A DNA stretch of 64,000 nucleotides from Pirellulales bacterium. GTDB lineage: Bacteria; Planctomycetota; Planctomycetia; Pirellulales; JAICIG01. This document shows, piece by piece, positions 23,560 to 33,706 of this stretch (positions are counted from its first letter, which is position 1; the number at the start of each line of letters is the position of its first letter). Below the pieces are notes generated by a model. That model was not told the origin of the DNA and made no database searches. It saw only the letters and a list, made by a program, of their open reading frames with translations. Position numbers and translations under genes: made by a program. The stretch is from the NCBI GenBank assembly GCA_035531595.1, contig DATKSN010000001.1:40533-104532 (forward strand), written 5' to 3'.

Positions 23560-24060
23560 ATGGCGCATCCAGCCGAGCCGCGGTTCCTTCAAGCCCGAGG
23601 CGATCGTCCGTTCCCATGGCCGTGTCCAAGTTGCCGAGCGATCGAGGTGTCACCTGCGACGATTGCCCATACGGCAACGCTTTTGTACGACGGTCGGCGC
23701 GTGACCGTCGACGTGCCACGGCTGAAGGCCCTGCAATGCCGTGGCTGCGGCGAGTTGGTCTTCGATGCGGGCGTCGATGAGCAGGTTCACCTTGCCCTCC
23801 GGCAACAACTCAAGTTGCTGACGCCAGACCAAATCTGTGCCGCCGTGGCAAGCCTCGGTGCGACGGATGAAGACGTAGCGGCAGATTTAGGGGTGTCGAC
23901 GGGCACGTTCGTTCGTTGGGCCACGGGGCGGATCATTCAACCCCCGGCGGTTGACCGTTGCTTACGCGGCTATTTTGCCTCGCCTGCCACGCGCGCCGCG
24001 AGCCGCGATACGACGTTCGGCACCGTGGCCGTCGTCGACGCGTCGTCGAAAGCCGAATGA
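23560..24060 (+). CDS. MqsA/YgiT-type zinc-ribbon HTH antitoxin-like protein
   Basis: PFPWPCPSC...CRGCGE zinc ribbon, then LLTPDQI...VAADLGVSTGTFVRW HTH; AAGGA RBS. Confidence 0.75.
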   Translation: MAHPAEPRFLQARGDRPFPWPCPSCRAIEVSPATIAHTATLLYDGRRVTVDVPRLKALQCRGCGELVFDAGVDEQVHLALRQQLKLLTPDQICAAVASLGATDEDVAADLGVSTGTFVRWATGRIIQPPAVDRCLRGYFASPATRAASRDTTFGTVAVVDASSKAE

Positions 24061-24302
24061 TTTTTGGATTTCGGCCGCGGCCACGGTCAGGCCCGCGCAG
24101 AGTGCCGCCCGCCGGCCGAAATCGCGCGAGAGGTTGTGCCGCTGGGAATTTACCGTAGCGCCGGTGCCGGTGTTTCGGTGAGCACGGTTGCCCCGCGGAC
24201 TGGCGGAACGTATCGTGTGGAGTACGCTCCGTTGGCGACGTTTTCGGTTCCTCGCTCGCCGCGCGGCGAGCAACCGTACGGCGAGTATTGCGATCAAGTG
24301 CC

Positions 24303-25694
24303 ATGGTCAACACGGGAAATTTGCCGGACAACGGCGCGGGTTCGCGCCGGCCGATCGTTTCGCGCCGCCGGCGCGCTCGCGAACTCATCGAATTGTGCGC
24401 GGATACGGCGGCGTTTTGGTATCTGAGCGGTCTCATCTTCGCGTTGGGGATCTCGTTCGGCTACACGTTCCTGGCAGCGGGGGCCGACGCGCGCCCGACG
24501 CGCCGCGACGTGATCGAAGCCCTGGGCGCCTTCGACGCCGAGTGGTACTCGTCGATCGCGACGCGCGGCTACTCCTACGACGTCAATGCGCGCTCGAACG
24601 TCGCCTTTTTTCCTTTGTATCCGCTGCTGGCGCGTGCCGTCGCCGCGCTCTTGCCGATCCGAATTGAAACGGCGCTGCTGATCGTCTCCAACGCTTCATT
24701 CCTCGCGGCGCTCATGGTTCTGGCCTCGTACGCGCGCGTGAGATACCCAGCCGCGCCGGAAGACTTGGCTCACTATGTCGTGCTTGCCGTCGCCCTGTTC
24801 CCAACGGCCTGCTTCTTCCGAATGCCGTACTCCGAATCGACGTTCCTGCTGCTCTGCGTCGTGTCGCTATACGGAATTGAGCGCCGCTGGTCGATGATGG
24901 TTCTGGTGGTCGTCGTCGGTCTGGCGACGGCGGCGCGCCCCGTTGGCGTGGCGCTCTTGGCGCCGTTAGCCCTCGACATTTGGCGCCGCCAGCCGTCGTT
25001 TGGACGACGATTGTCTTCGCTGGGCGTTTGGCTGCCGCTCGCGTGCTGGGGTTTGGCCGCCTACATGGCTTACCAATACGCCGCGTTCGGCGACGCGCTC
25101 GCCTTTGCCAAGACGCAGGAGCACTGGGGCGTCCGCGCGGCGCCGGGCTTGAGCGGCCGCCTCTGGGCATGTCTGACGTTCGAACCGATGGTCGCCGTCT
25201 ATGACGCCCATTCGCCCGCGTTCTGGGCAAGACGCGACGCGCATGGCGCCTTTTGCTTCAGTTTGCATTTTGCCAACCCGCTGTTCCTGTTTGCCGCGGT
25301 CGCCCTGCTACTCGCGGGAGCGGCACCCGGCACGCGCCTCGGACGTGTCAGCCGCGAAACCTCGCCCGCCGCCGGGCACGGTGGCGGATGTGTACCCTCG
25401 GCGCATCAGCGACGCGGCCGAACCAGCGACCCGCCGATGCGGGGGCGCTGGCTCAACCGCCTTGAGGCTTCGCTGGCGGTCCTGCTTCTGCTGATTCCGT
25501 ACCTGACGCGCGGCTATGAGATGGGGATGTCGTCGATGGGGCGGTTCGCGGCGGTCGTGTTCCCGATTTACCTCGTGCTGGGGCAGTTGCTTTACCGCCT
25601 TACGCCGGGGGCCGCGGCCGCGCTCCTCGCGGCGTCGGGCTTCCTGATGGGCTGCTACTCCGCGCTGTTTGTCGCCGGACGCCCGATCTTTTAG
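24303..25694 (+). CDS. GT-C fold (PIG-V-like) membrane mannosyltransferase
   Basis: FDAEWYSSIATRGY, AFFPLYPLL, YSESTFL, ATAARPVG, SMGRF; many TM helices. Confidence 0.8.
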   Translation: MVNTGNLPDNGAGSRRPIVSRRRRARELIELCADTAAFWYLSGLIFALGISFGYTFLAAGADARPTRRDVIEALGAFDAEWYSSIATRGYSYDVNARSNVAFFPLYPLLARAVAALLPIRIETALLIVSNASFLAALMVLASYARVRYPAAPEDLAHYVVLAVALFPTACFFRMPYSESTFLLLCVVSLYGIERRWSMMVLVVVVGLATAARPVGVALLAPLALDIWRRQPSFGRRLSSLGVWLPLACWGLAAYMAYQYAAFGDALAFAKTQEHWGVRAAPGLSGRLWACLTFEPMVAVYDAHSPAFWARRDAHGAFCFSLHFANPLFLFAAVALLLAGAAPGTRLGRVSRETSPAAGHGGGCVPSAHQRRGRTSDPPMRGRWLNRLEASLAVLLLLIPYLTRGYEMGMSSMGRFAAVVFPIYLVLGQLLYRLTPGAAAALLAASGFLMGCYSALFVAGRPIF

Positions 25695-25775
25695 TCGCCC
25701 CCCGCTTGAATGCCGGCTCTTCTTCAGTTGCGTTAAATTTCAACCGCCCGCTTAATTGCCAGAATCGTCCCTTAG

Positions 25776-25907
25776 CCCGTATTATTCATGGTCCGACACC
25801 AACCCGCAGCGCAAGCAAGGCCCAGGCTTGGACTTACCTTGCTTGCGCCGCGGGTTAGTGTGACGGCAGACTCCGCGACGCGCACGGGGGACCATGAATA
25901 ATTCGGG
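25776..25907. mobile_element. MITE-A variant (A2) carrying a REP-2 doublet
   Basis: MITE-A termini, TTAG duplication on both sides, 132 bp; contains AACCCGCAGCGCAAGCAAGG (25801-25820) and an inverted copy (25837-25856). Confidence 0.8.
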
Positions 25908-26004: not shown

Positions 26005-26286
26005 AGATGCCGTTGCCGCGGTAATCCTGGCAATGAAGCGGGTGGTTGTTAAATTTTGGTTCGCGCGGCATTAAATGGGTATATCTGGAAAGTGCGTACT
26101 ACCATACACTTAGAGCAAACAAAATGCTACTGGCACGCGCGAATTCTCCGCGGGAGGCCCATTTTTTGTCACGCCCCGTACGTATATATAAGTAGAGGGA
26201 CATGCGAATCCCCGAATGAACCGTTAAACTTGCCGTGGCCGAAGGGTGGCCCTTCGGTTCGGTACAGACGGCGAAAGGAGCATTTC

Positions 26287-26736
26287 ATGGGCCGATCAGC
26301 CATTTGTCGTTGGTGTACCGTTGCCGCCGTTGCGGTGCCTCTCTTGGCCGGCGCGTTCGCGCTCGCCGCGCCGGTGGCCTGGCGCCCGCTTACGACGCTC
26401 GAACAATCCGTCATGCGTGGCGGCCAATGCACGGGCAACGCCAACCAAACGTGTGGTCAGAACGGGACTTGCGGAGACAGCATCTTTGTGTGCGCCACGG
26501 GACCGTGTGGCTCGCAAAACGTCGGAGGATCCTGTGGCAACCAGGTCGATGGTCACAGTCCCGACCAATGCGTCGCTTCGCAAGGAGGCGAATGCGCCAA
26601 GGGGCAACAGATTCCCTGCACGGACAACGTGGCGTGTCAATGCGGTAACATTGGCACGCTGGAAATTCCCGAATACGTATGCACCACAGGCGCCGTTACT
26701 CCCGCCTCGATCACGTATCAGTGCCTGTCGAATTAG
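26287..26736 (+). CDS. Cys-rich secreted precursor peptide 1 (signal + double-Gly leader + 13-Cys core)
   Basis: AAAGGAG RBS; 149 aa; hydrophobic N-terminus; RPLTTLEQSVMRGG-QC; 103-aa core with 13 Cys. Confidence 0.8.
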   Translation: MGRSAICRWCTVAAVAVPLLAGAFALAAPVAWRPLTTLEQSVMRGGQCTGNANQTCGQNGTCGDSIFVCATGPCGSQNVGGSCGNQVDGHSPDQCVASQGGECAKGQQIPCTDNVACQCGNIGTLEIPEYVCTTGAVTPASITYQCLSN

Positions 26737-26748
26737 GGCTCCCTCGGC

Positions 26749-27846
26749 ATGTATGCATCCCGGCTCACCGCAGTGTTCTCCGTCTGGCTGATGGCGTCAG
26801 TGGCGCCTTGCCGGCTTGGCGGCGCCGTGGATGTCGCCAGCCAAGCGCTGGTCGACGAGGTGATCGCGGGGACCGAGGCGAACCTGGCGCTGATCGAGCA
26901 CGGAACGGCCACGTACTCCGTCCGGCGTACCAATGTAGTCCCCGCCGGATTGGACGTCCCGGGGGATGTCAAAATTGCCCATGGGACGTACACCAAAGAA
27001 GGCGAGGTGCGCGTGTCCTTCGACTATCCGCGGATGCACTTCGAGTGGCGCGGCACGGGACGCGTCCCGGGCGAGGTCGCTACGGAACGGGCGATTTACG
27101 ACGGCGAATACAACATGAGGTTCCTTGTGCCCTCGGCGGGGGCAGGCACAGGCACCGTTTTCATCATGGCGGGTTCTCACTCGACTACAGGCAACTACCT
27201 CCATCCGCGGAAGCAATTCCGCGGGTTTTGGATTCGGCCACCGTCGTTCGCTGATCAGCTCCGCGGCATGGCGGCGGCCGACGCCAGCTTGACGGCCGCG
27301 CGCCAGCCGGACGGGCTTGTACGCTTTGCGAATCAGCCCACGGCAGGCAAAATCCGCGGTATCTACTGGATTTCGCCGAACGAGGGCTACAGCCTGGTTC
27401 GCGCGCAGGAGTGGCCCGTCTGGTCGCCGGTCAAGCCTCCGCAGCTTTACGAGGCCACGGCGCGCCCGGCCGGCAACGGCGCGTTTGTGCTGGCGCACCG
27501 GCTTGCGAGGTTTTATTCGCTTTCCAAATCCGGCGAGTTGGAACCGAGTCGCGAAGAAGAGTCGACCCTGCGCGAGATCGACCTGCGGGTCCGCCCCGAT
27601 CCGAAGCTGTTCACGATCGATGGCCTCGGGTTGCGGGTGGGGGCGCGCATTGATGACCAGGTGCATGGCCGACTGTACCACTACGGCATCGACGCGGGCG
27701 GCGAGAGCGGCATTCTGCTGCCGCGATCCGGCGGCCCCATGACTCTGCGATATTGGTTCATCGGATTGAACGGGCTCGCCGGTATGCTGGCGATCGGCTG
27801 GATGATTTACAGGGCGAAACGCGGCCGTCCTGGCCCCGCCATCTGA
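26749..27846 (+). CDS. Secreted, C-terminally anchored partner protein 1
   Basis: N-terminal signal; C-terminal TM WFIGLNGLAGMLAIGWMIY followed by basic residues; paralogous to 28431-29624. Confidence 0.8.
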   Translation: MYASRLTAVFSVWLMASVAPCRLGGAVDVASQALVDEVIAGTEANLALIEHGTATYSVRRTNVVPAGLDVPGDVKIAHGTYTKEGEVRVSFDYPRMHFEWRGTGRVPGEVATERAIYDGEYNMRFLVPSAGAGTGTVFIMAGSHSTTGNYLHPRKQFRGFWIRPPSFADQLRGMAAADASLTAARQPDGLVRFANQPTAGKIRGIYWISPNEGYSLVRAQEWPVWSPVKPPQLYEATARPAGNGAFVLAHRLARFYSLSKSGELEPSREEESTLREIDLRVRPDPKLFTIDGLGLRVGARIDDQVHGRLYHYGIDAGGESGILLPRSGGPMTLRYWFIGLNGLAGMLAIGWMIYRAKRGRPGPAI

Positions 27847-27899
27847 GCGCGGAACGGGCAGGATTGGTCACCACCACGACTTCAGAACTGGAGGTTACG

Positions 27900-28337
27900 A
27901 TGACGAGGAACTTGACGCGGTTTTGGGTTCCCTACGCCGCCGCTTGTGCCACCTGGGCGTTGACCGGCGCTTGGGCCGGCGTTGAGCAGTACGCGCGTCG
28001 GCCCATGTCGATGCCGGCGCAGCTAGCGCTGCGCGGCGGGCAGTGCGTGGGGGATCCTGGCAAATGCGATGCGACTAACTCGTGCGTCAGCGATGGAACG
28101 TCTAGTAGCTGCAAGGGAAATACTTGCTCCTACCCAAACACGCCCTGCAACGCGTACCAGATCAACGGCTCCAACGAGCCTGCCTGCGTCCAAAATAATA
28201 ACGCCACGACGAAATGTGTTTATTCCACCAATCAAGTGAAATGCTATGACTTTCTCGACTGTAACTGTGACATGGACTTGAACTGTGTCGGTACGACGAC
28301 GCAAGAGGACATTGGCATTTGTTTGCAGGGCACGTAG
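27900..28337 (+). CDS. Cys-rich secreted precursor peptide 2 (signal + double-Gly leader + 13-Cys core)
   Basis: GGAGG RBS; 145 aa; RPMSMPAQLALRGG-QC; 98-aa core with 13 Cys. Confidence 0.8.
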   Translation: MTRNLTRFWVPYAAACATWALTGAWAGVEQYARRPMSMPAQLALRGGQCVGDPGKCDATNSCVSDGTSSSCKGNTCSYPNTPCNAYQINGSNEPACVQNNNATTKCVYSTNQVKCYDFLDCNCDMDLNCVGTTTQEDIGICLQGT

Positions 28338-28430: not shown

Positions 28431-29624
28431 ATGAACGCAAGCAGAATGCAACCCAGCGGGATTGGTTCGGGATGCCATCCAGCGTCGCGCCGCGTCGCCT
28501 GCCGAGCGGCGCTGTTCGCGGCCAGCGCCGTATGGGCGGCGGCCCCATGCGGAACCGCGACGACGCGATCAGCATGCCACGCGGCCGACGCGGTCAGCGA
28601 CGCGCTGCTCGACGAGGCGGCCGCGGCGGTCGACGGCAACATGGCGCTGATCGAGCGCGGCGTCGCCAAGTACCGTATCGTCACAACGGAGTTTACGCCC
28701 CCTCCCGTGTCCCCACAAAAGCCGCCCGGCGCTCCGCCCGTGAAGCCGTGGGACGGCAAGCCGCGCGGCCCTTACACCGAGGAAGTGACCATCTATTTCG
28801 ACTATCCGGAGCTGCGCTTCGATACGCGGGGCCAGCGCTGGAAAATGAGCGGCGAAGTCGGGGAGATCGACGATTCCACGATCTATGGCAAGGAATATCA
28901 CATCAACTACGGTCGCATGACCGAGGCGATGGCCGCCAGGCACCACCGCGTGCGCATCGACCCCGTCGGCGTCGGCGTGCGCGGCATGCTGCTGTTGCAT
29001 CCGCGCGAGCAGGCATGCCCGCATTGGACCCTTACCACCGAGGCGCTGGCCGAAATGCGGGGCGACGCGCGGAGAACAGTCACGGCTATGAGAGAAGCCA
29101 ATGGGTTGCTACGGGTGGCGGTCGATTGGCCGACGTTTCGATCGAGTTTTTGGCTGTCGCCGGCGCAGGGGTGCTGCGTCGTGTTGGCGAAAGCGTGGAG
29201 TTCGGGCGCGGAGGCGGACGAACCGTTTGAAGTTGATCAGGCGACGTACCGCGAGGCCGAGAACGGCGCGTTCGTGCTCGAACACCGGCTAATGCACAAG
29301 TCCAAGATGGTCGATGGAGTGCGCGAGCGGACGCGCGACGAGGAAGCGACGTTGCTGGAAGTCGACATGCGAAGCGATCTGGACCCGAACATTTTCACGT
29401 TGGATGGGCTGGGGCTGCCCGAAGGCGCGCAAATCCACGACGCCGTACGCGGCAGGAAGTACGAGTACCGCGTTCCCGCGGTGACGGAATCGGAAATCGA
29501 GCCGCCCGCGCCCGGCGGCGCGATGGCGGGCCGGCGCTGGTACACCGCCGGATATCTCGTCGTTGGACTTGCGCTGGCGGGCTTGCTCGCCTGGAAGCTC
29601 AGGCATGCCCGGCGACGACCGTAG
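28431..29624 (+). CDS. Secreted, C-terminally anchored partner protein 2
   Basis: ALLDEAAAAVDGNMALIERGVAKY and DPNIFTLDGLGLPEGAQIHD match motifs in partner 1; C-terminal TM plus basic tail. Confidence 0.8.
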   Translation: MNASRMQPSGIGSGCHPASRRVACRAALFAASAVWAAAPCGTATTRSACHAADAVSDALLDEAAAAVDGNMALIERGVAKYRIVTTEFTPPPVSPQKPPGAPPVKPWDGKPRGPYTEEVTIYFDYPELRFDTRGQRWKMSGEVGEIDDSTIYGKEYHINYGRMTEAMAARHHRVRIDPVGVGVRGMLLLHPREQACPHWTLTTEALAEMRGDARRTVTAMREANGLLRVAVDWPTFRSSFWLSPAQGCCVVLAKAWSSGAEADEPFEVDQATYREAENGAFVLEHRLMHKSKMVDGVRERTRDEEATLLEVDMRSDLDPNIFTLDGLGLPEGAQIHDAVRGRKYEYRVPAVTESEIEPPAPGGAMAGRRWYTAGYLVVGLALAGLLAWKLRHARRRP

Positions 29625-29807: not shown

Positions 29808-29835
29808 CTAGTGTTTGCGAATCAGGAGGTTCGTC

Positions 29836-31020
29836 ATGCATCGGATGAAGGTGGCGGCGGCGATGGCCGTTGCGGGCGGCTTGGCGTGCCTGGGGATCGT
29901 GGCGCTGGCTGGGCGCGCCAAGTCGACGCCAAACGCCGCGACGCCCGCCGCCGCCACGAACGCCACGCCACGCGGCGAAGTGGGCGTTCGCCGCGACGCC
30001 CAGCCCGCGGCGGCAACGGACTCGGAACTGGCCTGCGCCGCGCCGCACGTCGACGTCGGCGAAACCGCCAAGCGGCGGCAAGTCCATGAATTCGAGCTCA
30101 CGAACCGCTCCGGCGAGCGGATGCGCATTACGGCCACAGAAAAGAGTTGTGGCTGCGTCAAGCGAGAATTCAGCAAGTACGAGTTGGCGGCCGGCGAGAC
30201 GACCAAGCTGACGCTCGACTTCCCGATTCGAACCGCGGAGGGGACGGTCGCCGGCTTCTTGGAGCGGCTGGAGGTGTACGTCGACGACCGCAACGAGCGG
30301 CCCGCCGCCGTCCTGTCGGTCGGCGGCACGTACGTTCCGCTCGCCTACCGCGTCGGGGACGGCATCCACATCGAGCTGCCGGCGAGCGGCGAGACGGCCT
30401 TCCAGGGCTCGATCGAGGTCCGCCTCAACACGTCGCGCGGTGTCCGCATCGTCGGCTTCAAGCCGGCCGGCATGTTGCCCCTTGAGGCGCGCGTTGTGCC
30501 TGGGGAACCGATGCCGGGCGGACAAGAACAACGATTTACGATCGAGGTGACCGGTACGCTCCCACCGGATACCGCGTTGCCGGCGACGGGCGCCGTGGTC
30601 GCGCGCCTCAACAGCGATGAGATGCCGGAATTGGCGATTCCCGTCGTGCTCTACAAGCAGCCGGGCAACGAGGTGCGGACCAGCCCGGAGCGTTTGGCCT
30701 TTGGCGTCCTGGAATCGGGCGCCAGCGCCATGCGGGCCGTCGTCATCGTATTCCCCGACGGTTCCGACTATGTGGTGGAAAGGGCCGAGCCAAGTGGAGA
30801 CGGCGTGCGGGTGCGCGTCGAGACGCGGCGCGGCGGCAAGCGCGGCGCGCTGCTTCGTTGCGAACTCGACACCAGCACACTGCGCGGCGCGCTGAAACAG
30901 GATCTTGTCATCACGATGACGTCGCCCGGCAAGCCGCGCGAGACCCGCAAAGTGCCGATGAGCGCCTATGTCAAACCGGCCGCGGCGGAGCAGGCGGCTG
31001 GAACGTCGTTGAGCGACTAA
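29836..31020 (+). CDS. DUF1573 (Ig-like) domain secreted/membrane protein
   Basis: AGGAGG RBS; N-terminal hydrophobic segment; HEFELTNRSGERMRITATEKSCGCV matches the DUF1573 pattern. Confidence 0.8.
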   Translation: MHRMKVAAAMAVAGGLACLGIVALAGRAKSTPNAATPAAATNATPRGEVGVRRDAQPAAATDSELACAAPHVDVGETAKRRQVHEFELTNRSGERMRITATEKSCGCVKREFSKYELAAGETTKLTLDFPIRTAEGTVAGFLERLEVYVDDRNERPAAVLSVGGTYVPLAYRVGDGIHIELPASGETAFQGSIEVRLNTSRGVRIVGFKPAGMLPLEARVVPGEPMPGGQEQRFTIEVTGTLPPDTALPATGAVVARLNSDEMPELAIPVVLYKQPGNEVRTSPERLAFGVLESGASAMRAVVIVFPDGSDYVVERAEPSGDGVRVRVETRRGGKRGALLRCELDTSTLRGALKQDLVITMTSPGKPRETRKVPMSAYVKPAAAEQAAGTSLSD

Positions 31021-31048: not shown

Positions 31049-31591
31049 ATGCGAACGACTCTTGAAGCTTTGCCGGCGCGACGCGGCCGGCGCGCAAGCT
31101 GCGCGGCGGCGGCTGTGCTCGTCGCCGTCTTGCTGGCACCCGCAAACTGCGCCGATCTGAAGTTGGAGCGGTTTTACGAGCCGAACCGATGCGGGCCGAT
31201 CGCGCTGTACTGCGTTTGCAAATCGTACCAGATCGATACGACGATCGACGAACTGGCGAAGCTGGCCGGTTTCGATGGGCGCGAGACAAGCGTGGCGGGC
31301 CTCGTCGCCGCCGCCGAAAAGAAGGGGTTGAAGGCCGAAGCGCTCGAATCAAGTATGGCACACTTGACGACGTTGGGAGGGCCTGCGATCATCGACTACC
31401 CGAAAGGGCACTTTTGCGCCTTCTTCGGTTGGGATGGAACCAGCGCGATCATCCTTGATCCGCCGAAGAAAGCGGAACGGGTTGGGTTTGGGGAGTTGAG
31501 ACGCCGTTGGGGACGCCACATGATCACGTTTTCCGCGACTGACACCAAACAGCAAGAGCAGGCGTCAGCACTGCGGATCGGCCCTAAATGA
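31049..31591 (+). CDS. Stand-alone C39 family cysteine peptidase with N-terminal signal peptide
   Basis: NRCGP (C48), KGHF (H121), ILDP (D137), ETSVAGLVAAAEKKGLKA, RRW; no ABC-transporter domains. Confidence 0.85.
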   Translation: MRTTLEALPARRGRRASCAAAAVLVAVLLAPANCADLKLERFYEPNRCGPIALYCVCKSYQIDTTIDELAKLAGFDGRETSVAGLVAAAEKKGLKAEALESSMAHLTTLGGPAIIDYPKGHFCAFFGWDGTSAIILDPPKKAERVGFGELRRRWGRHMITFSATDTKQQEQASALRIGPK

Positions 31592-32119: not shown

Positions 32120-32253
32120 CCCGGATAATTCATGGTCCAGGGGGAACGAGCGCAGTCTGCCAGCACACCAACCCGCAGCGCAAGCAAGGTAGTAAGTTCA
32201 ACGCTGAGCCTTGCTTGCGCTGCGGGTTAGTGTTGGACCATGAATAATCCCGG
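32120..32253. mobile_element. MITE-A variant (A2) carrying a REP-2 doublet
   Basis: MITE-A termini; 134 bp; CCAG/CTAG flanks; REP-2 at 32170-32189 and 32209-32228. Confidence 0.8.
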
Positions 32254-32428
32254 CTAGGACAACTTCATTCTAGTGTACTTGCCCTGAGAGTGCAAAGCGA
32301 GAGCCTCGCAACCGCGTAAAACCGTGGCTGTCCATTAACCCCTTGGGGAACACGTTGACACCCGCCGCCGGGGGCGTATCCTGGCGTGGGGGCGACTGGA
32401 CGAACCTCACCGGGAAAATTGCCTTCCG

Positions 32429-33706
32429 ATGCCTGCCCCATTCATTTCCTTCCTTTGCCTCGCGTTGTCGCTCATGGCCATTCAGCAATCCAACGCCGCC
32501 AGTCCGTTCCCACCCGTGGCGGAATTGCCGTCGCACCCCGAACTGCCCGACCCGCTGGTCTTGTTCCACGGAGAACCCGTGCGGACCAAGGAGCAATGGG
32601 CAAACCAGCGGCGGCCGGAACTCAAGGCGCTGTTCCAACACTACATGTACGGCTATTTGCCCGCGGCGCCCCGGCGGATCAGCGCGAACGTCGAGCGCGT
32701 CGATGCGAATTACTTCGGCGGCAAAGCGACCAAGCAGGAAGTCACCATCGCCTTCGGCCCGCCGGAGGCGCCGACCATCGAGTTGTTGCTGGTGATCCCG
32801 AACGCGCGAAAGGGACCGGCGCCGGTGTTCGTGGGGGAGAACTTCTGCGGCAACCATACGCTGGTGACCGATCCCAACGTGGCGCTGCCGAGGACCTGGA
32901 TGCCGCACCATTGCCCCGGCTGCCAGGACCATCGGGCGACCGACGCGGGACGGGGCACGCAGGTCGATGTCTGGAACCTCGAGCAGTCGATCGACCGCGG
33001 CTACGCGGTGGCCACGTTCTACTGCGGCGACGTCGATCCTGATCGGCCCGACTTCAGCGACGGCGTCCATCCGTTTTTCGCATCCGACGGCACGACCCAA
33101 CCTGGACCGCACACCTGGGGCACGATCGCCGCCTGGGCCTGGGGCATCCAGCGCGCGGTCGATTACCTCGTGACCCATCCTGACCTGGACGCGCGACGGA
33201 TCGCCGTGGTCGGCCATTCGCGGCTGGGCAAGACCGCGCTGTTGGCCGCGGCGATGGACGAGCGGATCGCGCTGGCGATTCCGCACCAGGCGGGCTGCGG
33301 CGGCACCGCCCCCAGCCGCGGAAAAACGGGCGAATCGGTCGAGCGCATCAACACCGCGTTTCCGCATTGGTTCGCCGAAGAGTTCAAACAATTCAACGAG
33401 CACGTCGACAAGCTGCCCTTCGATCAGCACTCGCTGCTGGCGCTGGTCGCCCCGCGCCCCGTGCTGTTTTCAAACGCGGTCGACGACCAGTGGGCCAATC
33501 CGGACGGCCAGTTCGAGGTGCTCAAGGCCGCCGAGGGGGTCTATCGCCTGTTGGGCGCCGACGGGCTGGCCGCCGACAAGCCGCCGGAGCCGGGACGCCT
33601 GATCGATGGCACGCTGGGTTATTACATCCGCCCCGGCAAACATTCGATGACCCAAGGCGATTGGCAAGTGTTCCTCGACTTCGCCGACAAACAGTTCGGA
33701 AAGTAG
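32429..33706 (+). CDS. CE15-like (glucuronoyl esterase family) alpha/beta hydrolase, secreted
   Basis: Signal peptide; LPDPL, AWAWGIQRAVDYL, GHSRLGKTAL, PFDQHSLLALVAPRP, RPGKH. Confidence 0.8.
   Translation: MPAPFISFLCLALSLMAIQQSNAASPFPPVAELPSHPELPDPLVLFHGEPVRTKEQWANQRRPELKALFQHYMYGYLPAAPRRISANVERVDANYFGGKATKQEVTIAFGPPEAPTIELLLVIPNARKGPAPVFVGENFCGNHTLVTDPNVALPRTWMPHHCPGCQDHRATDAGRGTQVDVWNLEQSIDRGYAVATFYCGDVDPDRPDFSDGVHPFFASDGTTQPGPHTWGTIAAWAWGIQRAVDYLVTHPDLDARRIAVVGHSRLGKTALLAAAMDERIALAIPHQAGCGGTAPSRGKTGESVERINTAFPHWFAEEFKQFNEHVDKLPFDQHSLLALVAPRPVLFSNAVDDQWANPDGQFEVLKAAEGVYRLLGADGLAADKPPEPGRLIDGTLGYYIRPGKHSMTQGDWQVFLDFADKQFGK

Follow-up and report, generated by a model that had tools for sequence, protein, structure and literature searches.

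A planctomycete gene cassette pairing candidate double-glycine leaders behind Sec-type signals with a stand-alone C39 peptidase

Introduction

Cleavage of double-glycine leaders is cytoplasmic and tied to ATP-binding cassette (ABC) exporters. How, then, might a precursor be matured whose double-glycine leader lies behind a signal-like hydrophobic helix, close to a C39 peptidase gene that encodes no ABC domain? The question is raised by a gene cassette of an uncultured soil planctomycete of the order Pirellulales (assembly GCA_035531595.1). We analyzed 64,000 nt of its contig DATKSN010000001.1, positions 40,533 to 104,532 of the forward strand; this whole stretch is called the window, and coordinates count from its first letter. 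On the + strand of the window, a tight co-oriented block runs from precursor A through the C39 peptidase and holds two Cys-rich precursors (A and B), a LolA-fold partner after each, a DUF1573 protein, and the peptidase. We read the precursors as members of a secreted, disulfide-rich protein family that would be matured by an extracytoplasmic "two-signal" route, a proposal made from sequence to which we assign a probability of roughly 0.6.

Results

Two paralogous precursors with 13-Cys cores

Precursor A (P0001, 149 aa; 26287..26736, +) consists of a signal-like helix, a double-glycine leader, and a 103-aa core with 13 Cys; precursor B (P0002, 145 aa; 27900..28337, +) has the same architecture with a 98-aa, 13-Cys core. 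Both had been singled out in an earlier reading of the letters (the sequence-only reading), whose quoted proteins we reproduced by translating 26287–26733 and 27900–28334: The leaders end in RPLTTLEQSVMRGG and RPMSMPAQLALRGG, each followed by QC. Its core lengths and Cys counts were correct, its Cys spacings exact (7-5-6-4-8-11-7-7-5-1-12-13 in A and 6-5-8-4-6-12-9-8-5-1-5-11 in B), and the C-x5-C-x-C motif is present in both cores. The proposed starts are backed by ribosome-binding sites, with AAGGAG 7–12 nt before the ATG at 26287 and GGAGG 6 nt before that at 27900. Because these ATGs match the N termini of homologues, which place GG near residue 45, the longer open reading frames (ORFs) listed at 26056 and 27753 are over-extensions, as had been claimed.

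Placed with a position table of 79 family members, the leader box occupies residues 33–46 of precursor A (26383..26424, +) and residues 34–47 of precursor B (27999..28040, +); the predicted cuts fall after G46 (nt 26424) and after G47 (nt 28040). The two precursors are paralogues (29% identity, E 4e-8), and their cores contain no Arg and are rich in Thr, Ser, Asn, and Gly. Precursor A is the sole cassette gene represented in a soil metatranscriptome: Two perfect contigs over 26320–26618 hold 61% of its sampled words, which suggests that it is transcribed.

A family defined by its leader box and Cys scaffold

A word-index homology search with precursor A as query recovered only precursor A itself, and a profile HMMER scan was needed to reach relatives. 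The seed profile comprised eight precursors collected from gene neighborhoods in related genomes and metagenome contigs. Run against 1.84 billion representative proteins, it returned 77 matches at E ≤ 1e-3 (clusters at 50% identity), 24 of them at E ≤ 1e-10; their lengths span 99–192 aa, with all but one at 134–192 aa. Neither the precursors nor the partners matched anything in Pfam or NCBIfam at E ≤ 1. Judged by these searches, the precursors form an unannotated protein family.

Aligned on the GG position, 79 members share the box R-x-[LM]-[ST]-x-x-E-[QL]-x-x-[LVI]-R-G-G. Counting back from the predicted cut, Arg stands at −14 in 40 members, Leu or Met at −12 in 72, Ser or Thr at −11 in 55, Glu at −8 in 52, Gln or Leu at −7 in 51, Leu, Val, or Ile at −4 in 62, Arg at −3 in 36, and Gly at −2 in 73; position −1 is Gly in 68 and otherwise Ser, Ala, Thr, Arg, or Asn. 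The two window copies read L-T-x-x-E-Q-x-x-M-R-G-G and M-S-x-x-A-Q-x-x-L-R-G-G. The classical leader consensus of class II bacteriocins and microcins is L(−12) S/T(−11) xx E(−8) L(−7) xx I/V/L(−4) x G(−2) G/A/S(−1), and the 79-member counts agree with this consensus of C39 substrates.

A hydrophobic stretch lies upstream of the box in 78 of the 79 members as scored, the exception (a copy in genome G179) being a late-start artefact. Across all full-length members, GG falls at residue 45.6 ± 6, and the mean maximal Kyte–Doolittle hydropathy upstream of it is 2.25 over 15 aa. This stretch and the 79-member consensus strongly support the central claim of the sequence-only reading, a bacteriocin-type double-glycine leader placed behind a signal peptide. 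Its more specific leader ending, RGG-x-C, stands in part: GG is family-wide, whereas Arg at −3 occurs in 36 of 79 members and the Cys after GG is confined to this subfamily. One homologue carries a lipobox-like LVAC; this motif is not conserved across the family, and a lipoprotein reading of the signals was rejected. Among 85,993 six-frame ORFs of the host genome, the only ones that combine a loose leader with upstream hydrophobicity and a Cys-rich tail lie beside C39 genes.

Conservation is distributed unevenly along the precursors. Averaged over pairs of sequences, the N-terminal segment is 15% identical and the leader 32%; identity reaches 91% at core Cys columns and 13% at the remaining core positions, and leader conservation stops abruptly at GG. 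The idea of a fixed scaffold with variable loops is borne out by the last two figures, and both the GG box and the Cys framework persist in homologues. Cores average 114 aa and carry 12 (27 members), 13 (17), or 14 (24) Cys, with 12 Cys columns conserved in ≥90% of members. An odd Cys count, read earlier as a feature of the framework, belongs to the window's subfamily: The 13th Cys of the window copies is C48 (precursor A numbering), just after GG, and the notion of a free thiol depends on this single extra residue beyond the 12 conserved. From the scaffold and its loops we infer a possible toxin or recognition role for the precursors.

An AlphaFold2 model of precursor A, built with 71 sequences (predicted local distance difference test score, pLDDT, 81.6), has helices at residues 3–31 and 37–42, the latter in the leader, followed by a core rich in beta-hairpins. 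The predicted core fold matched nothing in the PDB, so the check on structure that had been suggested for the family turned up no known relative: Foldseek gave a best E of 0.8 with TM-score ≤ 0.18, and a profile search against PDB sequences gave a chance-level match only (E 0.13). Given no PDB fold or profile match, we rejected a relationship to the small subunit of methylamine dehydrogenase, an idea prompted by MauE neighbors in related loci, as well as membership in the knottin, granulin, and EGF-type families.

A stand-alone C39 peptidase and its DUF1573 neighbor

The C39 peptidase (P0007, 180 aa; 31049..31591, +) is encoded 2.7 kb downstream of the precursors and has no ABC or transmembrane (TM) domain. 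It matches Pfam Peptidase_C39 (PF03412) over profile positions 9–131 of 133 (64.7 bits against a cut-off of 22; E 1e-17) and the peptidase domain of ComA (3k8u) at E 3e-5, with Cys, His, and Asp in register. Its residues C48, H121, and D137 align to ComA positions that fit a catalytic Cys-His-Asp triad by residue type and spacing, under what we take to be the ComA catalytic numbering. The triad is invariant in seven C39s from precursor loci, all with hydrophobic N termini and none with an ABC domain. The N terminus of P0007 itself shows an Arg-rich n-region, a hydrophobic h-region, and the motif ANC-A, as read from the sequence.

All ten loci with sufficient flanking sequence have a non-ABC C39 within a few kilobases of the precursor: the window (C1), contig C235 of the host genome (G000), G001, G179 C3, G179 C6, G116, G425, L051, L052, and the P0022 contig. 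C39 is fused to DUF1573 in two of the ten. Cassette C39s outside the window are 146–183 aa long or fused to DUF1573, and an ABC domain occurs in no cassette. The host genome has five C39 genes on ORFs of 192–588 aa, at least four of which are stand-alone or DUF1573-fused.

These data bear on a conventional explanation, namely that the hydrophobic N terminus is no export signal and that a peptidase-containing ABC transporter (PCAT) encoded elsewhere cuts and exports the precursor from the cytoplasm. Double-glycine leaders are classically handled by PCATs (PMC10233263), and long C39-containing ORFs do occur in relatives (758 aa in G004; 651 and 1080 aa in G179). We nevertheless consider this route very improbable, given cassettes that lack ABC domains, cassette C39s with hydrophobic N termini of their own, and the sizes and fusions of the five host C39 ORFs. 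A core with 12–14 Cys, moreover, needs an oxidizing compartment, and other products encoded in cassettes of this kind (MauE–thioredoxin proteins, GT-C glycosyltransferases, and the signal-bearing partners) all act outside the cytoplasm.

A second alternative keeps the Sec signal and changes the meaning of the box: Behind a plain Sec signal, the box would stay on the mature protein as a site where the partner or DUF1573 docks, and C39 would act elsewhere. This reading gains from the case of FapD, the only periplasmic C39 studied so far, for which no substrate is known and canonical GG leaders are absent (PMC5557850), and from the window's own peptidase, in which the oxyanion-hole Gln normally found six residues ahead of the catalytic Cys is missing. 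That position is F42 in P0007, and C39 relatives have Gln at −2, −4, or −7 from the catalytic Cys instead. The box, however, follows the leader consensus at one position after another, and its G-[GSA] variants are ones that C39 enzymes tolerate; its conservation ends at GG; and an intact-triad C39 is encoded near the precursor at each of the ten loci, as well as beside an unrelated GG-box precursor in the host genome (contig C311, below). A docking motif is therefore improbable, and cleavage at GG remains our preferred reading of the box.

The DUF1573 Ig-like protein (P0008, 401 aa; 29815..31020, +), whose true start is probably the ATG at 29836 or 29845, matches PF07610 at E 1.9e-12 (47.5 bits against a cut-off of 26.1) and carries an SCGC motif at residues 111–114. 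Around SCGC it also bears a weak, sub-threshold resemblance to OS_HP2 (seleno)proteins (25.9 bits, where the cut-off is 100), a hint that the conserved CxC motif might be redox-active.

Elsewhere in the host genome, C39 and DUF1573 recur together. A second, more divergent cassette on contig C235 (25826–34400, − strand) begins with a precursor whose leader ends ADGASIRGG before ANC and which has 14 Cys; it is followed by a distant LolA-like partner (384 aa), a C39-TM-DUF1573 protein in which two TM helices link C39 to DUF1573 within a single chain, an LRR-like protein, a GT2 (Dpm1-like) glycosyltransferase, and an ArnT/PMT-like GT-C. On contig C311 (5526–7851), a Cys-rich precursor of the GG-box type (...VPHAELAAIRAG before DYVEC; ...PHAELAAIRAG before DY), unrelated to the window's precursor family and hence not counted among the ten loci, precedes a stand-alone C39 with a C-terminal TM helix and then DUF1573; no LolA-like partner was seen at C311. 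Contig C320 (16142–18346) encodes a signal-bearing Cys-rich ORF and then a C39-TM-DUF1573 fusion, and contig C248 (196–1959) a C39-DUF1573 fusion at the contig end.

The C311, C320, and C248 modules, in addition to the cassettes, indicate that C39-DUF1573 is a recurrent module serving several precursor families, and the gene fusions (C235, C320, and C248 in the host genome) point to C39 and DUF1573 working together. Whole genomes G001, G425, and G179 have 6–11 Peptidase_C39 matches each, mostly on ORFs of 150–560 aa, below ABC-transporter size; exported C39 modules appear expanded in some planctomycetes.

LolA-fold partner proteins paired with the precursors

Each precursor gene is followed by a partner gene. 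Partner A (P0003, 365 aa; 26749..27846, +) has an N-terminal signal, a LolA-like half-barrel, a C-terminal TM helix, and a basic tail, and partner B (P0004, 397 aa; 28431..29624, +) is its paralogue (37% identity, E 4e-46). Since both the precursors and the partners are paralogous between A and B, the "precursor + partner" unit was duplicated in tandem. In the AlphaFold2 model of partner A (pLDDT 77.3; predicted TM-score, pTM, 0.70), an N-terminal helix precedes a long antiparallel half-barrel, with the TM helix at the C terminus. Foldseek placed it with DUF1329 (4z48), LolA (4ki3, 6f3z), and LprG at probability 1.0, with E-values from 1e-6 to 1e-4 (1e-6 to 5e-5 for 4z48, 4ki3, 9tp6, 6f3z, and 3mha) and target-normalized TM-scores of 0.5–0.62; in Pfam and NCBIfam searches at E ≤ 1, the partners belonged to no LolA, LolB, or LprG sequence family.

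A LolA-fold partner adjoins every family precursor, paired 1:1. It was present at the ten loci except G179 C6, where only precursor and C39 were located, and even the partner of the distant C235 precursor is recognizable (hhalign E 3.5e-5). Partners also occur by themselves. In G052, locus L011 (contig C71, 5599–14484) encodes two DUF1573-like proteins, five tandem partner paralogues, and a PIG-V-like GT-C; in this 84%-complete genome, no family precursor was found anywhere and no C39 lies adjacent to the partner locus. The partner module is thus able to stand on its own, as would suit immunity but also other roles. G004 retains a partner pseudogene and no precursor, and metagenome contig L021 a truncated solo partner copy. 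With its 1:1 pairing and its orphan and decayed partners, the architecture fits immunity and is no proof of it.

Flanking genes, repeats, and distribution

Directly upstream of precursor A lies a PIG-V-like GT-C membrane glycosyltransferase gene (24288..25694, +; TTG start uncertain), which matches Pfam Mannosyl_trans2 (PIG-V) at E 5e-7 (29.8 bits against a cut-off of 22.4). An orthologue holds the same position on Logan contig L014, and GT-C genes also occur in G179, G116, L051 (assigned by sequence resemblance, with no Pfam match), L052 (a PMT_2 member), and G052. The cassettes of G116 and L051 include MauE–thioredoxin fusions that bear CPxC. In G179, a MauE gene precedes a distinct small ORF that matched nothing in Pfam; no MauE gene was present in the window's cassette among the ORFs examined at 23.5–33.7 kb. 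A 166-aa HTH_31/MqsA-antitoxin-like protein with no obvious toxin partner is encoded at 23560–24060, shortly before the GT-C gene. At the other end, a secreted glucuronyl-esterase-like enzyme (32429–33706; GCE_fung, E 7e-40) directly follows the right-hand repeat and marks the cassette end.

The cassette is bracketed by an inverted repeat of ~105 nt that resembles a miniature inverted-repeat transposable element (MITE), with its left arm at 25773..25876 and its right arm at 32150..32256. The repeat pairs 25773–25837/32192–32256 and 25835–25876/32150–32191 are 88% complementary. A related pair, 25863–25915/29763–29815, has its inner segment between partner B and the DUF1573 gene. Metatranscriptome depth peaks at 25.7–26.3 kb and 29.7–29.96 kb are probably multi-copy repeats, since they coincide with the repeats and show chimeric joints. 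A promoter and terminator scan gave no convincing internal terminator and a sole promoter-like site, at 25756–25785, inside the MITE region.

The precursor family is rare and patchy: A 71-row profile found it in at least 2 of 401 sampled genomes of the phylum, with a handful in the order. The figure is a lower bound, since nine candidates per genome were scored and the C235 copy of the host genome itself was missed.

GT-C conservation and carrier-like partner folds bring in a serious rival to an antagonistic product. Here the mature proteins would be structural or surface components of the envelope, a disulfide-knotted, glycosylated coat or adhesion layer, with the partner as escort or anchor, GT-C as decorating enzyme, and C39 processing unchanged. 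Several features agree with such a role: GT-C genes are conserved in cassettes, with GT2 and GT-C together at C235; LolA and LprG folds are those of carriers rather than classical immunity folds; partner, DUF1573, and glycosyltransferase persist together in G052 without a precursor; and the cores lack Arg and abound in Thr, Ser, Asn, and Gly. A core envelope component, however, would not be expected to be so rare and patchy, and hypervariable loops and the orphan and decayed partner genes likewise speak against it. On balance we judge an envelope role unlikely and keep it as a serious competitor to antagonism or recognition.

Discussion

Proposed maturation route

Under the reading that we prefer, the N-terminal hydrophobic helix would take the precursor through Sec, after which the helix would either be removed by signal peptidase or keep the precursor tethered to the membrane. 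Outside the cytoplasm, the ~100-aa core would fold oxidatively around its 12 conserved Cys, as its Cys content and the MauE/thioredoxin neighbors in related loci lead us to infer, and the CxC-bearing DUF1573 protein may take part. The exported C39 (31049–31591) would then recognize the amphipathic leader helix and, probably together with DUF1573, cut after GG by the chemistry expected of its family. Cleavage at G46 in A and G47 in B would release the mature protein on the periplasmic side with no ABC exporter involved. The partnership of C39, precursor, and DUF1573 is evident from 10/10 co-location and gene fusion; cleavage itself is predicted. The mature protein would next be bound by its own LolA-fold partner, anchored by the C-terminal TM helix; the partner is most likely a cognate immunity protein, or else an escort. 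More speculatively, the GT-C might glycosylate the Thr/Ser/Asn-rich core or the partner.

The likeliest purpose of the product is antagonism or recognition. We favor it because of the hypervariable loops on a fixed Cys scaffold, the 1:1 partners, and the orphan or decayed partners elsewhere, and also because of the patchy distribution and the MITE-like repeats that bracket the cassette.

Several observations weigh against the proposal. Export of the precursors and of C39 is read from hydrophobic N termini and from AXA-like motifs picked out by eye, and the route does not account for the passage of a ~100-aa protein across the outer membrane. The peptidase has F42 where the oxyanion Gln usually stands. 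Precursor and partner co-diverge modestly (mirror-tree r 0.53 over 10 pairs), and in G052 the partner, DUF1573, and glycosyltransferase genes are retained with neither a family precursor nor a neighboring C39. The metatranscriptome run behind the apparent transcription of precursor A may contain DNA.

A much broader generalization would be a widespread, undescribed machine in which Sec export is followed by C39-DUF1573, MauE–thioredoxin, and GT-C proteins that fold, decorate, and release bacteriocins, with LolA-fold immunity, represented in the host genome by about five modules and at least three unrelated precursor families. We offer this idea tentatively and regard it as rather doubtful.

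Significance

If the proposed route is correct, a textbook cytoplasmic tag, together with its protease family, is found outside the cytoplasm and joined to Sec export. The cassettes then offer candidate enzyme–substrate pairs for the periplasmic C39 class, which is poorly understood and has FapD as its sole studied member. They also define two unannotated families, the Cys-rich precursors and the LolA-fold partners, and suggest a concrete role for DUF1573, among the commonest unknown domains in Planctomycetota. The products could be the first ribosomal antimicrobial or recognition proteins of planctomycetes, and if so, LolA-fold membrane proteins would be a new class of cognate immunity factors. 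The 12-Cys scaffold, compact, hypervariable, and without a PDB relative, is of structural interest in itself.

Comparison with known systems

Separate parts of the cassette recall separate known systems. MauE and MauD assist maturation of the disulfide-rich small subunit of methylamine dehydrogenase, and in G116, G179, and L051 a MauE and a thioredoxin-like domain, fused or adjacent, likewise stand beside a putative periplasmic protein of ~110–130 aa with at least six predicted disulfides. The likeness ends there: The precursor resembles no PDB chain in sequence or fold, and no other mau genes were recognized among the cassette genes examined. The partners share with LolA, LolB, LprG, and DUF1329 carriers a predicted fold of an N-terminal helix and a long antiparallel half-barrel, and differ from them in lacking sequence-family membership, in their C-terminal TM tether, and in being encoded 1:1 with a Cys-rich precursor.

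For an exported C39, the nearest precedent would be FapD of the Pseudomonas Fap functional amyloid system, a periplasmic C39 whose target is unclear according to its authors and whose class is uncharacterized (PMC5557850). In both systems a stand-alone C39 (periplasmic in the case of FapD, putatively so here) shares its operon with proteins that are, or in the cassette would be, exported by Sec. The cassette, in contrast, has no fap genes, amyloid repeats, or FapF-type barrel, and no Fap family matched; and where the substrates of FapD lack canonical GG leaders, the candidate substrates here carry a textbook one.

With PCATs and the related ABC transporter maturation and secretion (AMS) proteins (ComA, PCAT1, LahT, and CvaB, serving class II bacteriocins and microcins), the cassette shares the leader consensus, the peptidase family PF03412 with its Cys-His-Asp triad, the joint encoding of precursor and peptidase, and a specific partner gene beside each precursor, like an immunity gene. 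It differs in the position of the leader, which follows a Sec-type hydrophobic segment rather than lying at the extreme N terminus (~15–30 aa); in its C39, a 180-aa stand-alone, apparently exported protein or a DUF1573 fusion with no ABC transporter or membrane fusion protein; and in its cargo, a 100–115-aa protein with 12–14 Cys rather than a short peptide. Class II bacteriocin systems export directly, with no periplasmic intermediate (PMC10233263). The cassette therefore lacks two defining features of PCAT systems, an N-terminal leader and a peptidase within an ABC exporter. We found no published description of it in the planctomycete, bacteriocin, double-glycine, and DUF1573-with-C39 literature. 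Taken together, these likenesses and differences point to an extracytoplasmic, Sec-coupled, and apparently undescribed version of double-glycine maturation.

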